64,000 nucleotides of DNA from Octopus sinensis. Taxonomy: Eukaryota. This document shows, in pieces, positions 15,360 to 56,166 of this stretch. Position numbers and translations under genes: made by a program. Position 1 is the first letter of the stretch. The number at the start of each line of letters is the position of its first letter. The stretch covers positions 14,756,001-14,820,000 of the forward strand of contig NC_043003.1 of the NCBI RefSeq assembly GCF_006345805.1, given 5' to 3'. The notes under the pieces are model-generated. The model had not been told where the DNA came from and ran no database searches. It worked only from the letters and a program-made list of their open reading frames with translations.

Positions 15360-15459
15360 NNNNNNNNNNNNNNNNNNNNNNNNNNNNNNNNNNNNNNNNN
15401 NNNNNNNNNNNNNNNNNNNNNNNNNNNNNNNNNNNNNNNNNNNNNNNNNNNNNNNNNNN
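15360..15459. other. Assembly gap (100 N)
   Basis: Run of N. Confidence 1.
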
Positions 15460-26934: not shown

Positions 26935-29027
26935 CATGCTTTCCCTGCACTACCGAGCGCAGCACTATGTACCTTGGGTATGTGCTGTTGTTTGTTGTGA
27001 TGCTCTTATGGTTACTGTATTGAGAGTGTTTTAGATAGGATGTGTTCAGTGCCTAGTAGTGCTATTTTCTGTATGTTATACAGGGTGCGGCAGAAATACC
27101 GCCCACATTTGAAAGGTTGACAAAAGAAAAAAGAAACAACATTTATGATAAATAAATTTTGCTGTTGTTTAAACAAAGGGCTACAGTTTTTGTTCATTAG
27201 ATACAAGAAAACATCATTGGCACTTGCATGAGTTCATTAGTAACACCTAGGTGAAAGTTTAAAATGTGGGAGGTATTTCTGCCACACCCTGTATATATTT
27301 GTAAGTCCTGGTGTTTTTGTTATGTATTTGTCTGAATATTTTTTTTATCATACCTAATGCGTCCACTATGATAGGAATTGTTTCTGTTTTTAGATTCCAC
27401 ATTCTAGTTACCTCTTTTTCCAGGTCTTTGTATTTTGAAAGTTTCTCCATTTCTTTTAGAGACACGTTGTCATCTGCTGGTATTAATACATCAATTAGAA
27501 AGCAATTTTTCTTCATGATCTCTGACAACTATATCTGGTCTGCTGGCCTTAATTTCTCTATCTGTGTGTATTGGCATATCCCAGAGTATGGTTGCTTTCT
27601 CGTTTTCTGTGACCTTTTCTGGTGTGTGCCTATACCATCTTTTTTCTGTTGTTATTCCATAATGTTGGCATAGTTTCCAGTGTATGTAGGTCCCAACTCT
27701 GTCGTGTCTGTGAATATGTTCCTTCTTAGCCAGGACTGGGCAGCCAGAGATAATATGATTTATTGTTTCTTGTCCATCTCTACATATTCTGCAGTTACTT
27801 GTTATATTTCTTTTCATTACATGTTTTTGGTAATTTCTGATGGGGAGGCTTTGGTCTTGTGCTGCAATTAAAAATCCTTCAGTCTCTGCTTTGAGTCCTG
27901 AGCTTCTCAGCCATTGCTGGGATTTTGCTTCGTTTATTTCTTTAGCTCTTAGTTTAACCCAGTATTTGCCATGAAGGGGCTTTTCTTGCCATCATTTTAT
28001 CATGGTCCGTTGCTGTTTTAGTTTTAGTCTGGATTTCATTTGTTTCTTCTTTTTCTTCATAGTTGTTAGGTAGTATGACTTCTTGTTTGTATTTGTCAAC
28101 TTCCTTAAAGACTTTGTTTTGTTCATGCTTTGTGGCTTAGGCATTTTTGTAGTCCTATGGTGGTTATTTTGTAATAGTTTTCTAGCTGTATAAGACCTCT
28201 ACCACCTTCCATATGTTGTATATATAATCTTTCTATGTCAGTTTTTGAGTGGTGCATTCTAGATCCTGTCATTATTTTTCTTGTTTTCTTGTCTATTTTG
28301 ATTAGTTCATTTAGTGCCTAGTTAAGAATATTGTAGCTGTAACTTATAACTGGGATAGCTAAAGTGTTAATACCTATTATCTTGTTTTTAGCATTGAGCT
28401 CTGTTTTTAGTATTGATCTAACTCATCTATAGTATTCTTTTTTTATTTTCTCCTTCATTTATGTGTGTTGTATCATACCTAGTTCATTGGTTCTTAAATA
28501 TTTGCATGTCTGGCTTTGGTCTAATTCTCTTATTTAATTTGCTTTATCTAGTGTGATGTTGCTACTCTTAACTAGTTTTCCTCTTTTCAAGGTTGCTTTA
28601 GTACATTTTTCTAAGACAACTTTCATGTATATTTCTTTGGTAAATCCATGTAGTGTCTGTAGTAATGTCTCCAGCTGTTTACCATTTGTAGCATACAGTT
28701 TTAGGTCATCCATATATAAGAGGTGGCTGATTGTTTTGCTGTAACAGTTGTATCTGCATCAAGTTCTACTAGCATGTCAAAGGTGTCAGTACCAAGCAGA
28801 AAAGGAGTGGAGAGAGCGTGTCTCCCTGGAATATTCCTCTTCTAATGGGGACAGCTTTTGTTATTATGAGTCCATCTTTTGTTTGGAGCTGTAGCACTGT
28901 ATGCCATTCATTCATGGAATGTGTTATATATTTTATGGTTAAAGAAATATATATTTTATGGTTATTGGTGCTACTTTGTTCATGGCTAGTGTTTCTAGTA
29001 TCCATGTGCAGGGAACTATCAAAAGCC
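26935..29027 (-). mobile_element. Second decayed R4/Dong copy, same family as 9-2160, 5'-truncated at the KAFDS motif
   Basis: ORFs 28769-29005 (GIFQGDTLSPLLF), 27491-27817 (CCHC, RPDIVV), 27259-27528 (REL); 5' junction abuts (GAA)n(TAA)n on its strand. Confidence 0.92.
27081..27291. mobile_element. Tc1/mariner-type MITE, 211 bp, about 30-bp TIRs, TA TSD
   Basis: cagggtgcggcagaaataccgcccacattt / aaatgtgggaggtatttctgccacaccctg; TA at 27079-80 and 27292-93; absent from paralogous site near 1992-1997. Confidence 0.92.
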
Positions 29028-44030: not shown

Positions 44031-44748
44031 TCCTTTTTCACTCCATGACCCAGGCGTATTCTATGATGCTACTGGAATTGGTGAATCTGTCTCAAACAGG
44101 ACTGAAGAGTTGTTGCAACTTCTATCAGTTATGGATGTGGTGGTTAAGAAGCTCGCTTTGCAACCATGTAGCTTTGGGTTCAATCCCATTGTGTGTCACC
44201 TTGGATAGGTGTCTTCTACTGTATCCCTAGGACGACTAATAACTTGTGGGTGAATTCAATGGACGGAAACTGTGTGGAAGGCCATCATGTATGTATGTGT
44301 GTGTACAAGTGTGTGTACACGTATGTGCATGTGTGTATGTATATGTGCATGTGTGTGTATGTGCATGCGTATGTGTCTGTGCATGCATGTGTGTATGTGT
44401 GTTAGTGAGTGTGTGTGTGTGTGTGTGTGTGCCTGTGTGTGTGTGAGTGTATGTGTGTAACTGAGAGAGAGAGAGAGAGAGAAAGAGAGTGAGAGTTAAC
44501 AAGAATGAGGGCAGAAAGAGGTGTGCTGCTGAAGGGGAGTACATGGTTACCTAGAAAAAGGTGGGGATTTAGCAAGAAAGAGGTGTGCTGGAAACCTTTC
44601 AGTCTCCATCTATCAAATCCACTTACAAGGCTTCAGTCAACCTGGGGCTATAGTAGAAGACACTTGCCCAAGGTATCATACCGTGGGATTGAACCCAGAA
44701 TCATGTGGTTGGGAAACAAGCTTCTAACCACACTTCCACACCTGCACA

Positions 44749-44785
<37 letters not shown>

Positions 44786-45408
44786 CATATATCCCCATCA
44801 TCATCATTATTATCATGATGATGATCATTTAACATCTGCTTTCCATGCTGGCATGGGTTGGGCAGTTGGACTGAAGACTGGCAATCCAGAAGGCTGCATC
44901 AGGCTCCAATCTGATTTGGAGGCCTTTCCTAATGCCAATCACTCCGAGAGTGTAGTGGGTGCTTTTTACGTGCCACTGGTATGAGGGCCAGTCAATCAGC
45001 ACTGACAATGATCATGCTCAAATGGTGCTTTTTACATCCCACTGGCATGGGAGCAAGTCAGGTGGCACCAGTAGCAACCATGCTTGAATGGTGCTTTTTA
45101 TGTGCCACCAGCACGGGACCAGTCGGGTGACACTGGCATCTAGGTATATATATATGAAATAAATGTGCCCTTTTAAAGCCTAGCCAGAGTCATGGGGCCC
45201 GGTTTCCCGGTTTCGATGGTGTATGTGTTCCCCAGCTGGACGAGACACCAGTCCATCGCAGCGTTATTCATTTTTGCCAGCTGAGTGGACTGGAGCAACA
45301 TGAAATGAAGTGTCTTGCTCAAGAACACGTGTCGACCGGTCCAGGAATCAAGACACCACAATCTTACGATCATGATTCTGACACCCTAACCACTAAGCCA
45401 CACACCTC

Positions 45409-45442
<34 letters not shown>

Positions 45443-46062
45443 TATATCCCCATCATCATCATTATTATCATGATGATGATCATTTAACATCTGCTTTCCA
45501 TGCTGGCATGGGTTGGGCAGTTGGACTGAAGACTGGCAATCCAGAAGGCTTGCATCAGGCTCCAATCTGATTTGGAGGCCTTTCCTAACGTCAATCACTC
45601 CGAGAGTGTAGTGGGTGCTTTTCACGTGCCATTGGTATGAGGGCCAGTCAATCAGCACTGACAATGATCATGCTCAAATGGTATTTTTACATCCCACTGG
45701 CATGGGAGCAAGTCAGGTGGCACCAGTAGCAACCATGCTTGAATGGTGCTTTTTATGTGCCACCAGCACGGGACCAGTCGGGTGACACTGGCATCTAGGT
45801 ATATATATATGAAATAAATGTGCCCTTTTAAAGCCTAGCCAGAGTCATGGGGCCGGTTTCCCGGTTTCGATGGTGTATGTGTTCCCCAGCTGGACGAGAC
45901 ACCAGTCCATCGCAGCGTTATTCATTTTTGCTAGCTGAGTGGACTGGAGCAACATGAAATGAAGTGTCTTGCTCAAGAACACGTGTCGACCGGTCCAGGA
46001 ATCGAGACACCACAATCTTACGATCATGATTCTGACACCCTAACCACTAAGCCACACACCTC

Positions 46063-46096
<34 letters not shown>

Positions 46097-46737
46097 TATA
46101 TCCCCATCATCATCATTATTATCATGATGATGATCATTTAACATCTGCTTTCCATGCTGGCATGGGTTGGGCAGTTGGACTGAAGACTGGCAAGCCAGAA
46201 GGCTGCATCAGGCTCCAATCTGATTTGGAGGCCTTTCCTAACGTCAATCACTCCGAGAGTGTAGTGGGTGCTTTTCACGTGCCATTGGTATGAGGGCCAG
46301 TCAATCAGCACTGACAATGATCATGCTCAAATGGTAATTTTTACATCCCACCAGCATGGGAGCAAGTCAGGTGGCACCAGTAGCAACCATGCTTGAATGG
46401 TGCTTTTTATGTGCCACCAGCACGGGACCAGTCGGGTGACACTGGCATCTAGGTATATATATATGAAATAAATGTGCCCTTTTAAAGCCTAGCCAGAGTC
46501 ATGGGGCCCGGTTTCCCGGTTTCTATGGTGTATGTGTTCCCCAGCTGGACGAGACACCAGTCCATCGCAGCGTTATTCATTTTTGCTAGCTGAGTGGACT
46601 GGAGCAACATGAAATGAAGTGTCTTGCTCAAGAACACGTGTCGACCGGTCCAGGAATCGAGACACCACAATCTTACGATCATGATTCTGACACCCTAACC
46701 ACTAAGCCACACACCTCCACACACACACACACACACA
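44749..46737. repeat. Tandem triplication of an about 655-bp unit [(CA)n + family C SINE(-) + family D SINE(-)]
   Basis: atccccatcatc anchor at 44791, 45446 and 46100; units nearly identical. Confidence 0.93.
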
Positions 46738-47347
46738 TATATATAGATATACATATATGTGTGTGTGTAGATGTGTGGATGTACATATGTATTTATGTAC
46801 ATATATATTTACACATACATATGTACATACATTCATATATACAGGTGTGTGTGTGTGCATGTGTGTATGTATATACGCACACACACAACACACATGTACA
46901 CACTCACCCATATGCAGTTGTTTACATTATCCTTATCAAAGTCTTCAGACACAGCACTGGAATTCACTTTCTATTTTTCGTTGTTGGTATGCTTCACACC
47001 ATCAGCTTCCCTTTAGTTCCTCATCCACATTACTGCTGCTGCCACAGATGCTTCCGCAGATGCTGCTGTCACTGCTGTCACTTATGCAGCAGCTGCTGTT
47101 GTTACCATCTCTGCTGTTGCTTCTGCTGCTGTAGTTATTATTGTTGTAAAATAAATTTTGAATCTTATAAGAAAATACCTAACAGTTTCCAGGTTGAATG
47201 CCAACTGCATTTGTGAGGCACTGTACGTAGCACAGTGAGCAGAACATTGTGTGATGTACTCCTTTTAAATTATCTAAGTGATTGGACTGTGGCCAAGCTG
47301 GAGCATTGCACTGAAGTGTTTTAGTTGATTATTTTGATATCAATACT

Positions 47348-48715: not shown

Positions 48716-49458
48716 AGAGAGCATTACTATATATAAATGGCTACACACTAGGAGGGACTCTTAAAGTTAAAGCTACCAAAATAAATAAACACATTGTACC
48801 GAAAGCAAAGGAATTCAACTCTTGAAGCTAGTCACTTAAAAACAGAATTCAGCTGCAAATCACATGATTTCATAATTAGTGCAGAAATGCATTTTTTAAT
48901 CGTCAGTGCATGCATAATTCAAGATATATAATGAATGAATGAGGTTTTTCACGCTAACTACTTGATAAATTTTTATAAATGTTTTATCCTATTTTTAAAT
49001 TGTAAATTTAACCGAAGTATATTCAGTAATGAATTTTTATTCTGAATAAACACGTTATACCGAGATGCAATTCATAAAAGCCCGCCATTTACATAGATGT
49101 ATAAAGGGTGAACATTTCTATATGCTACGTTGGATACATTGGTTGTTCATCTAGTATGCTGATTTTTGTTCATTCATTATATATTTACAATTTAAAAATG
49201 GGATAAAATCTTTATAAGAATTTATGAAGTAGTTAGTGTGAAAAATCTCATTCATTCATTATGCGTGCACTGATGATTAAAAAGTGCATTTCTGCACTAA
49301 TTATGAAATCATGTCATTTGCAGCCGAATTCTGTTTTTAAGTGGCTAGGTTTGAGAGTTGCATTTCCTCACTTTCGGTATGATGTGTTGATTTATTTTGG
49401 TAGTTTTGACTTTAAGAGTCCCTCCTAGCGTGTGCATTTATGTTTAGTAATGCCCTCT
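48716..49458. mobile_element. About 740-bp foldback element with about 290-bp imperfect inverted arms
   Basis: agagcattact..tttttaaattgtaaat (48716-49007) is the imperfect reverse complement of atttacaatttaaaaa..agtaatgccctct (49183-49458). Confidence 0.9.
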
Positions 49459-49552: not shown

Positions 49553-49825
49553 GCATATATGGGTACAGGATGTCACAAAACATAAACAACATGAATTAAG
49601 AAATACGAAAACAACATGAAATACAAAGGCAAACTTGGGTATGCGAACAACGAGAGAAACAAATGGAAAACAAGACAAGTAACATAAAGGACGACCCTTC
49701 ATCAGTTGTCGGCTGTCCATCTACTCCATATTTCGAGTGGGTCATTCTTTAAATTGGTTTCTTTTCCATGTTTCTCTCATTGTTTGCATACCCAAGTTTG
49801 CCTTCGTATTTCATGTCGTTTTGCA
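49552..49825. mobile_element. TA-anchored PLE-like fragment with partial inversion
   Basis: 49608-49670 inverted relative to 49761-49823; terminus gtcctgtacccatatatgc (minus strand) resembles 53559-53579. Confidence 0.6.
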
Positions 49826-50862: not shown

Positions 50863-51463
50863 GATATACCTAAGACTACATTATTCAATGTATCTGTTAT
50901 CAATTAGGTTGGTAAGGTGTGATTTTGAGGGAGATTTGGCTGCTATTTCTAGCACAGTGTATGGCTAGGTAGAAGTTCTCTCAACAGCTTGTGAACTGTC
51001 ATGCAGCAAGGTACCAACTAAATACTTTACAGCGATAAATCTTGCCTTTCTGTGTCTCAGGTTCAAATCTTGATTGAGCATTGATGAAATAAATGTGAAT
51101 AAGTCCATCTGTCCTTTGAGCTGGATTCAATTGACTCCAAAATTAGTCTGGTAGAAATCAATATTATTTACTAAAAATAACAGAACCTATTTTTAAAATT
51201 ATGTGGTTTTTTTATTTTTCCTGAATGTTAGCCTTCATTGAAATTTGAAAACAAATTATTGATTGGTTTCTTCCTTTTATTTTGTATTGAACTTCATTCT
51301 CACCATTTAAATATCGAAAAAGAAAAAAACAAATTGTTTAGCACCTGTTTGTTCATGTTACCATGGGAAACCTAAAACTCTTCTCTTTCTACCATCATTT
51401 GACAGAGTGTGCGTGTGTATATATATATGTATATATATATGTATATATGTTATATATATTATA

Positions 51464-51506
<43 letters not shown>

Positions 51507-51680
51507 TAAATATTAGGGAATAAATCCAAATTTACAGGGAAAAAATCAGATTTAGGATTAAATCCAATTTTATAGTAAAATATTATAAAATATTATTAGA
51601 GACAAAACCACTATTTTGCAAAACAAACAAGGAAAGACTTAATCAATACATAAAATTTTAATAAATAGTCAAAAAAACCG

Positions 51681-51723
51681 CCACTACAATTGTTTCTTGT
51701 CTTGATCGACAATCTTCAGGTGG
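51681..51723 (-). ncRNA. Minimal type I hammerhead ribozyme motif (PLE-type)
   Basis: Reverse complement of 52068-52110. Confidence 0.8.
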
Positions 51724-52067
51724 ACTTCCAATAAGTCAGTTTCAAATTATGAATTATGAAATATGAATTATGAATTATGAAATAGGTTCTGTTATTTTTA
51801 GTAAATAATATTGATTTCTACCAGACTAATTTTGGAGTCAATTGAATCCAGCTCAAAGGACAGATGGACTTATTCACATTTATTTCATCAATGCTCAATC
51901 AAGATTTGAACCTGAGACACAGAAAGGCAAGATTTATCGCTGTAAAGTATTTAGTTGGTACCTTGCTGCATGACAGTTCACAAGCTGTTGAGAGAACTTC
52001 TACCTAGCCATACACTGTGCTAGAAATAGCAGCCAAATTCATAATTTGAAACTGACTTATTGGAAGT

Positions 52068-52110
52068 CCACCTGAAGATTGTCGATCAAGACAAGAAACA
52101 ATTGTAGTGG
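52068..52110 (+). ncRNA. Minimal type I hammerhead ribozyme motif (PLE-type); predicted cleavage after 52106
   Basis: ccac-CTGAAGA-ttgtc gatcaa gacaa-GAAA-caattg-TA-gtgg: core motifs intact, stems I and II pair, palindromic stem III. Confidence 0.8.
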
Positions 52111-52197
52111 CGGTTTTTTTGACTATTTATTAAAATTTTATGTATTGATTAAGTCTTTCCTTGTTTGTTTTGCAAAATAGTGGTTTTGTCTCTAATA

Positions 52198-52229
<32 letters not shown>

Positions 52230-52230
<1 letters not shown>

Positions 52231-52612: not shown

Positions 52613-52726
52613 TATAATATATATATATATATATTTCAACAATTGAGGGCAAAATTAATTAATATAATCAATTTCACCAAGTGTTCAGTATGCAAGGGAC
52701 CATTCAAGGCGAATTCAAATTATTAC

Positions 52727-53007
52727 ATTATATAAAAGGTCTTAGTAAAATAAATTACTTTGCCGCATACTGACTCATTAGAAATAGCAGCTAAAAAACT
52801 TTTTAAAGCTATTTCTAATACTTAAAGAAAATCTCTCTCATATGTGTTTGCTTAATTCACTCACTTTTGTGAGTTGAATTAAGCAAACACTATATGAGAG
52901 AGATTTTCTTTAAGTATTAGATAGCTTTAAAAAAGTTTTTTAGCTGCTATTTCTAATGAGTTCGTATATGCGGCAAGTAATTTATTTTACTAAGCCTTTT
53001 ATATAAT
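52727..53007. repeat. Near-perfect 280-bp palindrome (4-nt TTTT loop at 52865-52868) in a TA-anchored element starting near 52635
   Basis: Arms compared by eye; differences are mostly 1-2-bp indels. Confidence 0.9.
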
Positions 53008-53649
53008 ATATATATATATATATATAACTACAAAATTAGAAAATGGAGAAACATACTTAAATCAATCAAACATCAACCAACAGATGATACCCAATCAATA
53101 CTTTATTACACCATTACATAACAGTAAAGGCATTTTACAAAATATATTGTAAATATAATTAGACAAGGAAATAGAAATATAAAATATAAAATATAATATG
53201 TAATTATATCATATCTGACAGCCCTTCTTATCTTGTTTTTCCTTGTCCTGTCTTTTACTGTTTACAATTTGTACTGTCGTTACTGTCCTGTTGTTACCAT
53301 TTTTTACCCCTCTGCGAAAAGATCTCAGAATTTTAATTGATTTGCTTTTAGCAGGAAGGAAAGTTTTCTTGTCGAAGATACGTCTCACTTTTATCCTTCG
53401 AAACGTAGAGTAGATGAAACCTATAGCGATTAAAGAAGGGGTTTGTTCTTTGTGTTAATTGTCCTGTACTCTATTTTTTTGCTGTTTTTAAAAACATGTC
53501 CAGTTCCTTGGGTTTGTGTCTATGTCTTCATTTCTCATTGTGTTCGACGTCCTTTTGGTGTCCTGTACTCATATATGCGTATATATGTACATGTAGAGGT
53601 AGGTACGTACATATATGTTTATATATATGCATATGTTTTATTTTATTTA

Positions 53650-55213: not shown

Positions 55214-55679
55214 ATTGATAGAATGAGTACCAGTTGAACTCTGGGGTCGATGTAATCAAGTTACACCCTTCCCTGAAATCACTGGTCTTGTGCCAAAATC
55301 TGAAAGCAGTGTACAGCTTAATGAAACATATTGTCTATACTCTACATACAGGGCCAGATTAAAACCCATCAAGGCCCTAAGCACATAGAAGATTTTGGTG
55401 CCCCCATAAAAGATTATGTAATTCAAAATATAAACAATAACAAACCATAAAATAATTTTTATATTTTTCAAAATGAAACAAAAGATAAAGAGAGGGAAAA
55501 TAATGTTTATTTTTGTATATTTCCACTTTATTTATATTTGAAAAGTTTCCTCCTACTTTTTTGAATTGCAAATTCTGAAAATCCTGAAAATTAATCTTAG
55601 GTAACACATCTGTATCTATACTTAGTAGAGACAAAGGCATCCCGGATATTATTTTAGCAAGTTTAAAGTGATTTCTTTT

Positions 55680-56166
55680 GTGCTGTAAACCAGCCGGGGT
55701 CACCATGGACATCCTGTGTCAGCACAGCATCAGAACCATACTGCAGCCAGCTCTCAGCCCAGATTTGAACCCAATTGAACACCTGTGGGATGAAATTCAG
55801 AGATGGCTGAACCAGGTGGTCCCAAGGTTGACAATTCATGTGGAACCAGAGGCAGCTTTCTTCATGGTGTGGGCACAAGTGCAAATAGCTTTTGTGAACT
55901 GCCTCATACACTCCATGTACTGATGGTGTATGGCCGTTTTAAACACCTAGGGAGGGCATACACAGTATTGAATATATCACGCCCTACAATCTCAATGTGC
56001 TGGATCTTCCCACTACCAGAACATATGACAACGACCCATAGACTGTGGTCAAAGTGCATCCAAGATGTTGACTTTATCAGATTTATCAAAATTTATCTCT
56101 GGCATAATGAAATTAAAATATATTCCACAGTCACATACATCTTGCATTTCTTTTGCGGTTCAGTGT
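55680..56166 (+). mobile_element. Tc1-like transposon 3' remnant (DDE C-terminus + right TIR)
   Basis: PALSPDLNPIEHLWDEIQR = Tc1 SPDLNPIE.LW motif; terminal ttgcatttcttttgcggttcagtg. Confidence 0.8.

Follow-up and report, generated by a model that had tools for sequence, protein, structure and literature searches.

How does a piece of unique flanking DNA come to stand, in inverted form, between two inverted copies of a ribozyme-bearing sequence? The question is raised by a locus of Octopus sinensis lying in a stretch of 64,000 nucleotides (GCF_006345805.1, NC_043003.1, positions 14,756,001 to 14,820,000), which is termed the window and supplies the coordinates used hereafter. The initial annotation regarded the arrangement as a ribozyme-bracketed capture of neighbouring DNA, a special cassette whose transcripts would end in a ribozyme, fold into nested dsRNA and offer a route to the transduction of host sequence. 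Judged by their sequence, the arms are not a capture device but the intron-less 5' ends of a young Hydra-clade Penelope-like element (PLE). The reading favoured here, to which a probability of roughly two in three is given, is that the locus represents one very recent insertion of this element, whose arms were likely twin-primed on one capped mRNA and whose inverted filler was likely templated while the ends were being joined.

Organization of the locus

Two exact inverted repeats constitute the locus (Table 1). The flanking segment A and the filler agree as reverse complements at 259 of 259 positions, and the two arms do so at 172 of 172 (51584-51755 versus 52036-52207), which confirms the inverted flank copy between hammerhead-bearing arms that had been noticed by eye. 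The order along the locus is A, left arm, inverted copy of A (A*) and right arm, the two inverted repeats being interleaved. When the element is numbered in the sense of the ribozyme, the left arm covers U1-249 and the right arm U1-174; the 172-nt exact repeat stands, while the arms themselves are unequal (249 nt with a 75-nt tail on the left, 174 nt on the right). The junction microhomologies are short as claimed, although the reported "aaat" and "aat" need letters of the stutter: measured against the native element end they are 2 nt (left) and 1 nt (right) long, and the stutter letters bring them to 4 and 3 nt. Likewise, the template distance of about 600 bp corresponds to the 588 nt of the finished product, whereas the source segment is separated from the left TA tract by 226 nt and from the arm by 312 nt.

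Table 1. Features of the locus in window coordinates, followed by fillers at other loci of the family in locus coordinates
Feature	Position	Strand	Remarks
Source segment A	50934..51192	+	in left flank; initial ~60 nt coincide with an older repeat's end, remainder unique
Unique flank between A and TA tract	51193..51417		unduplicated
Left (TA)n target tract	51418..51504		left end degenerate
Long arm, U1-249	51505..51753	-	249 nt; intron-less PLE 5' end; exon junction between 51733 and 51732
75-nt tail, U175-249	51505..51579	-	on one arm only (left)
Minimal type I hammerhead, left arm	51681..51723	-	predicted cut after 51685
Stutter	51754..51779	+	four further TTATGAA copies, one variant; re-copies of the element's first 7 nt; X2 contig agrees
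Junction filler, inverted copy of A	51780..52038	-	259 nt; exact match to A
Short arm, U1-174	52038..52211	+	174 nt; intron-less; exon junction between 52058 and 52059
Minimal type I hammerhead, right arm	52068..52110	+	predicted cut after 52106
Right (TA)n target tract	52204..52230		first letters overlap the end of the short arm
Filler, own flanks	L054:3013-3096		55 nt of left flank and 27 nt of right flank, both direct; GAATT and ACTT microhomologies
Filler, own flank	L235:1128-2678		266 nt, direct, iterated; left flank segment three times, long arm twice; noisy unplaced contig
Filler, own intron	L170:2332-2495		164 nt, intron of the element
Filler, ORF end	L221:2510-2563		54 nt
Filler, distant	L035:3020-3626 (C1, ~1.82 Mb)		607 nt from C28:757119-757772, permuted order; joined by a 2-nt TA microhomology

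A genome-wide search found the spacer at full length only at its two places in the locus, the two further matches covering its first 46-61 nt at 80-87% identity. The outcome named beforehand as fatal to the idea of captured DNA, namely that the spacer is an ordinary internal part of the family, was therefore rejected. Both arms and the filler are free of mutations. A target site duplication is unreadable, being hidden by the (TA)n target. The depth of short-read contigs, which is not read as copy number, is high up to about 50990, in the start of segment A.

Three older head-to-head palindromes lie beside TA tracts in the window, at 48716-49458, 49608-49822 and 52724-53010 (76%, 74% and 91% identity), the first carrying outward CUGANGA cores at 48906 (minus strand) and 49270 (plus strand); they likely show the same architecture as formed by other PLE families. 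The window also harbors a tandem repeat with a period of about 655 bp and 97-98% identity (44745-46758), a DDE transposase remnant (55672-55920), two zf-RVT LINE end remnants (1335-1754 and 27494-27991) and, far from the finding, a 100-base N gap (15360-15459).

Read support for the assembled arrangement

Four short-read runs were searched for contigs over the locus. A 319-nt contig of run X2, which may be the assembly's own sample, lies on 51727-52038 with neither differences nor gaps and bridges the join of stutter and spacer with 53 letters on its left side, and the left junction is thus spanned; the right arm is not matched by the 7 letters with which the contig begins. Among the matches listed from the four runs, no contig supports the right junction (52038/52039) and none extends over the whole stretch. 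As contigs attest presence alone, a gap is no proof: run X2, of which 76% was read, gave none on 51193-51279, and runs X1, X5 and X6 gave none on 51802-51975. In each of the latter three runs, a single contig continues unbroken from 50927 to 51371-51400, through A into the unique flank. In the assembly the two copies of A are identical, while X5 departs from that sequence inside A at 3 places and X6 at 4; this fits a very recent duplication absent from those animals, an absence that contigs leave unproven.

The unbroken contigs of X1, X5 and X6, together with the right junction and whole stretch that no listed record covers, would suit an artefact of assembly or of a chimeric read, or a middle segment mis-oriented between the two 259-bp inverted copies. 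Such an origin is nevertheless regarded as highly unlikely: the X2 contig contains the join of arm, stutter and spacer without a difference, the layout lacks the mirror symmetry of a fold-back chimera, and the arm lengths obey the rule of the family described below.

The parent element and its placement in the Hydra clade

Searches upstream and downstream revealed five full-length copies of the parent, in which the RT-endonuclease ORF is frameshifted, and the long arm matches exon 1 and exon 2 of one of them (L153) in two pieces. The ORF motifs comprise KWK (position 43, no RWK being present), DKT in place of DKG (position 128), YRDD, a CxCX5C linker together with CxxC and CxH in the endonuclease, and VVY..YIG. 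These were read from two frames of different frameshifted copies, YRDD standing at position 358 of the 442-aa frame of L156 and VVY..YIG in the C-terminal frame of L155. Pfam and PDB searches of the parent ORF yielded no naming match; its homologue P0056 matches Pfam GIY-YIG, and its best named homologue comes from Argonauta.

By sequence, these motifs agree with the description of the Hydra clade in the consulted part of PMC8557442, which also names RWK, and an earlier assignment to Neptune was dropped on account of both. The likeness extends to the C-terminal GIY-YIG-type endonuclease, DKT, CxCX5C, CxxC and CxH, to the hammerhead, which resides in the terminal repeat, to the (TA)n targets, and to the inverted 5' copy with a one-sided tail, which measures 75 nt here versus 30-40 nt there. 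The element departs from the description "generally shorter than 3 kb", which that source gives as a tendency: about 2.5 kb are occupied by the ORF, the unit exceeds 3 kb owing to a 5' UTR intron of about 1.8 kb, and in L153 exon 2 and the next exon 1 are 4.4 kb apart. The supplement of PMC8557442 lists Hydra-1_Obim of Octopus bimaculoides, which is likened to the present element by description. The PLE origin and the very recent age proposed at the outset are both supported.

The RNA template

In all five full-length copies the intron is bordered by GTAAG after U21 and TTTAG before U22 (GT, AG), and at a further locus (L146) U21 and U22 occur in order about 1.8 kb apart. The full-length copies L153-L157 and L146 retain this intron, whereas the short palindromes, including the two arms discussed here, are spliced; exact start matches number 238 for the unspliced and 283 for the spliced form. 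Both RNA forms consequently seem to be retrotransposed.

Of the 320 5' ends of arms, 90 coincide with the A of TCACTTC, most of the others fall within 10 nt of it, and only 6 extend beyond it in the upstream direction. We take TCACTTC to be an initiator-like word. The pentamer TCACT has been noted in another PLE (PMC3846280). An untemplated G often precedes this A at arm starts: counted by hand, it was found in 69 of the 100 listed spliced copies with a letter other than C, and in no unspliced copy, where the letter is C in 98 of the 100 listed out of 238. Where no TC of the partner arm explains the letter, G precedes in 29 of 64 cases. Since many G calls are indistinguishable from letters of the partner arm, copying of the cap is likely rather than proven; on the premise of cap copying, a microhomology of 2 nt is gained at the commonest joint, which 38 of the 183 loci share. 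Because the intron is missing, many arms stop at the A of TCACTTC and a G often precedes it, the template was likely a capped, spliced sense mRNA, uncleaved at the hammerhead.

Arm pairs across the genome

A 30-mer from the start of the arm has 283 exact genome matches. A census of 183 loci was assembled, each being required to hold one intact 5' end: set A (all 80 loci behind the first 100 listed matches, unbiased except for requiring that 30-mer) and set B (23 loci including the present one, together with 80 picked for non-native 5' contexts). The parser returned 160 head-to-head pairs and 23 singles, two of the latter (L103 and L174) being pairs that it missed. Outward-facing hammerheads in (TA)n are accordingly the normal form of the family, and the cassette is not special in this respect.

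In 156 of the 160 pairs, an arm that stops near U174 is paired with one that stops near U249 (66 of 68 in set A, against 50% expected under independent priming, p 2e-17); the remainder comprise one short-short pair, no long-long pair and three with another end. This one-long-one-short rule was not found in the literature searched, subscription journals being outside its scope, and comparable cases may exist. At the inner joints, 79 pairs overlap by 1-5 nt, 22 are blunt and 59 contain filler, which amounts to 1-3 extra letters in 15, 4-30 in 33 and more than 30 in 11. The long arm starts at U167 or later in 7 of the 160 pairs: in four it begins beyond U174 (U195, 209, 213-231 and 219) beside a U1-174 arm, and in three at U167-168, adjoining the priming site of the short arm.

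These data bear on the proposal, made for PLE inverted repeats in PMC3846280, of self-priming on an antisense template, in line with which the locus would derive from a single cDNA whose long arm folded back to make the short arm. The common joints are indeed palindromic microhomologies usable by a hairpin, such as TTCA/TGAA at 17 of the 183 loci. Such an origin is scarcely plausible, given that the four long arms starting beyond U174 do not overlap their partners, which shows that neither arm is a fold-back copy of the other, that the complete 5' end often stands on the short arm (G on 22 short and 42 long arms), and that the arms are spliced, in contrast to what an antisense template would give.

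Some further forms were encountered in the census. The palindromic joint GTCATAATTATGAC, or a close variant, recurs at five separate loci (L019, L092, L169, L231 and L237), which suggests two copying rounds between the ends. Whole cassettes stand twice in tandem at L041, L063, L095, L104 and L167, either as real duplications or through assembly errors, and each was counted once. The centre of L041 (155+206+155), once considered as a capture, proved to be native upstream sequence of the full-length copies.

Host exons in the family

Pfam searches revealed no host gene among 103 of the 195 candidate frames from the window and its neighbours. At L103:391-3236 (C5, ~131.87 Mb) lies a perfect 2.8-kb palindrome, both arms of which carry three host exons from C2:90508381-90574533, with introns of 48 and 17 kb removed at GT-AG boundaries. 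The exons encode the N-terminus of an ABCA transporter (E 1e-10 to ABCA7) and are joined by splicing to a point 14 nt upstream of the PLE start; relative to the assembled source, 8 substitutions are common to both arms. No source PLE was found in the 120 kb downstream of the third exon. True host transduction in this family goes via host exons spliced onto the element, as exemplified by L103. For the cassette in the window, the transduction initially envisaged finds no footing: no other copy of the spacer exists in the genome, and the right arm lacks the second priming site.

Probable twin priming of one RNA

Both arms of L103 carry the same rare chimeric host-PLE mRNA (1.2 kb), which points to one RNA primed twice. 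Together with the mixed pairs and the non-overlapping arms, it is explained by two primings of one RNA, as in L1. At the present locus, the endonuclease would first cut both strands in the (TA)n tract; cutting of both strands has been shown in vitro for another PLE (PMC11167929). One 3' end would then prime at RNA position 249 and the other at 174, both being copied toward the cap, and the two ends of identical sequence would be joined, as usually happens via 1-5 nt of microhomology. The inner joint does display the microhomology that twin priming predicts.

According to the consulted part of PMC11167929, the Poseidon protein PAc of Anolis cuts and extends both strands in vitro on an unprocessed RNA, with two internal RT starts bounding the tail. 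The scheme proposed here shares the cutting and extension of both strands, the two tail-bounding starts and the uncleaved RNA substrate. The RT start site in that system shows no strand difference, and strict one-of-each pairing is not seen in vitro, whereas the genomic insertions described here use one site per DNA end and both sites lie upstream of the ATG (U307). That part of the source does not link the two sites to inverted repeats; more generally, no proposal of twin priming for PLE inverted repeats was found in the literature searched, subscription journals being outside its scope.

With twin priming of L1, as described in the consulted parts of PMC11702581 and 10.1101/2024.08.27.596794, the locus shares two ends primed on one RNA, an inverted segment, microhomology at the inner joint, occasional filler from nearby genomic sequence and the use of the cap G as microhomology. 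L1 primes at poly(A) and at a chance internal site, its pieces barely overlapping, whereas two fixed internal sites are used here and both copies usually reach the cap, which results in a palindrome; the filler is also longer and more distant.

For endonuclease-bearing PLEs at large, we lean towards a scheme in which a dimeric enzyme would carry out coordinated twin priming at two fixed internal sites of one capped, spliced sense mRNA, with copying from both as far as the cap. The tail would correspond to the gap between the sites and the palindrome would be the default product; the joint may capture flank, circle-like distant DNA or an intron of the element itself, and any host mRNA joined to the element by splicing would re-enter the genome as host exons in a perfect palindrome.

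Origin of the filler

In the reading preferred here, the left end re-copied its last 7 nt four times, after which a fold-back onto the exposed strand of that same end, at 51192 and via 2-4 nt, likely led to the copying of 259 nt; the end of the filler would then have been joined to the right end via 1-3 nt. An invasion of the left flank by the right end would give the same letters. The polymerase may be either the PLE RT or Pol theta, and the claim of a filler templated from nearby sequence by one of these is supported. The features of snap-back SD-MMEJ are present, namely an inverted same-side template, a primer repeat of 2-4 nt and an exit microhomology of 1-3 nt. The consulted part of PMC5728401 describes the same three features for SD-MMEJ and Pol theta with templates tens of bases from the break, whereas here 259 nt were copied and the primer end would be new cDNA. 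Templated insertions of L1 are typically shorter than 250 bp with a source within 15 bp (10.1101/2024.08.27.596794; PMC11702581, in the parts consulted), against which a 259-nt filler from more than 200 nt away is both long and distant.

The count of paired arms whose spacer matches their own flank, as initially suggested, uncovered such fillers, albeit rarely: own, non-microsatellite flanks supplied the filler in 3 of the 160 pairs, one of them among the 68 of set A, and the present one is the only inverted case. The local inverted duplication is real, and the same route gave direct own-flank fillers at two other loci (L054 and L235). At L235 it is as if the new end had looped into its own flank and copied round, and the filler of L035 looks like a copy of a 654-bp circle or the outcome of two jumps.

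Copying of the filler from RNA, the PLE RT jumping at the cap onto a nascent plus-strand host transcript for 259 nt, is considered unlikely. The fillers from the intron (L170, 164 nt) and the ORF end (L221, 54 nt) are most simply explained by RNA templates, the stutter shows repeated re-priming at the 5' terminus of the template, and both flank pieces of L054 fit one plus-sense template. On the other hand, the 103 reading frames contained transposon domains and a single sub-threshold match but nothing that points to a host gene (short exons would be missed), and in all three own-flank cases the templates lie a few hundred bases from the break, as repair of DNA ends predicts.

Closely spaced perfect palindromes are fragile. 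It is conceivable that a perfect 172-bp palindrome later broke at its tip and that repair, which could use the same microhomologies, inserted flank DNA and spaced the arms. We hold this to be distinctly unlikely, as both arms keep U1 and miss only 2 nt of the RNA start with no loss at the tip, the arms and filler are mutation-free, and similar stutters occur at joints that contain no flank filler (L065 and L223).

The locus is a variant of known phenomena, namely the templated fillers of L1 and the host DNA between pLTRs in Adineta. In the consulted part of PMC3846280, unrelated sequence framed by Penelope pLTRs of Adineta vaga is likewise described; in that case the framed DNA contains introns, the pLTRs are direct and target duplications are present, whereas the arms of the present locus are inverted, their filler stems from the flank next to them, and the exons carried by L103 are spliced.

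Hammerhead ribozymes and predicted RNA folds

A motif scan of both strands of the window detected type I hammerhead cores at two places only, one per arm, and with their stems these bear out the claim of one intact minimal hammerhead per strand, pointing outward. Each follows the layout CCAC-CUGAAGA-stem II-GAAA-CAAUUG-UA-GUGG, with the CUGANGA, GAAA and UH core, a stem I of 4 bp, a stem II of 5 bp and the cut triplet GUA; the G10.1-C11.1 pair closing stem II is missing, stem II opening with U-A. The short stem III bears a palindromic loop, ACAAUUGU, all 8 nt of which are predicted to pair in a two-copy co-fold. Rfam returned nothing at gathering score in the window, and the call derives from the motif scan. 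Minimal hammerheads of PLEs are described as dimer-dependent and weak in the consulted part of PMC4209133.

In predicted full-length folds, the 259-bp helix dominates both strands, and the probability that stem I of the hammerhead forms is 0.001 on the plus and 0.15 on the minus strand; when the cassette is folded alone, the ribozyme is predicted to be buried in the arm duplex. The hammerhead fold is not favoured in the predicted structures of cassette transcripts, and the hammerheads are passengers in the insertion. The nested dsRNA was also abandoned, for the order A, arm, A*, arm makes the helices cross. Neither the promoter region nor the start of the ORF is contained in the cassette, which would render further mobilisation unlikely, and it was likely dead on arrival.

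Significance

The consulted part of PMC8557442 calls the formation of tandem and inverted PLE structures an open task. The census matters in this respect, as a few hundred natural products of one RNA end bear on the inverted repeats and tails of PLEs. Twin priming is made directly testable, in the in vitro system already available, by the one-long-one-short rule, by a template that is spliced and apparently capped, and by the pairs whose arms do not overlap. As this locus demonstrates, an inverted duplicate of unique flank DNA can arise at the inner joint. At L103, host exons have been written back by the same element into a perfect palindrome of kilobase size, from which host-gene dsRNA may arise.
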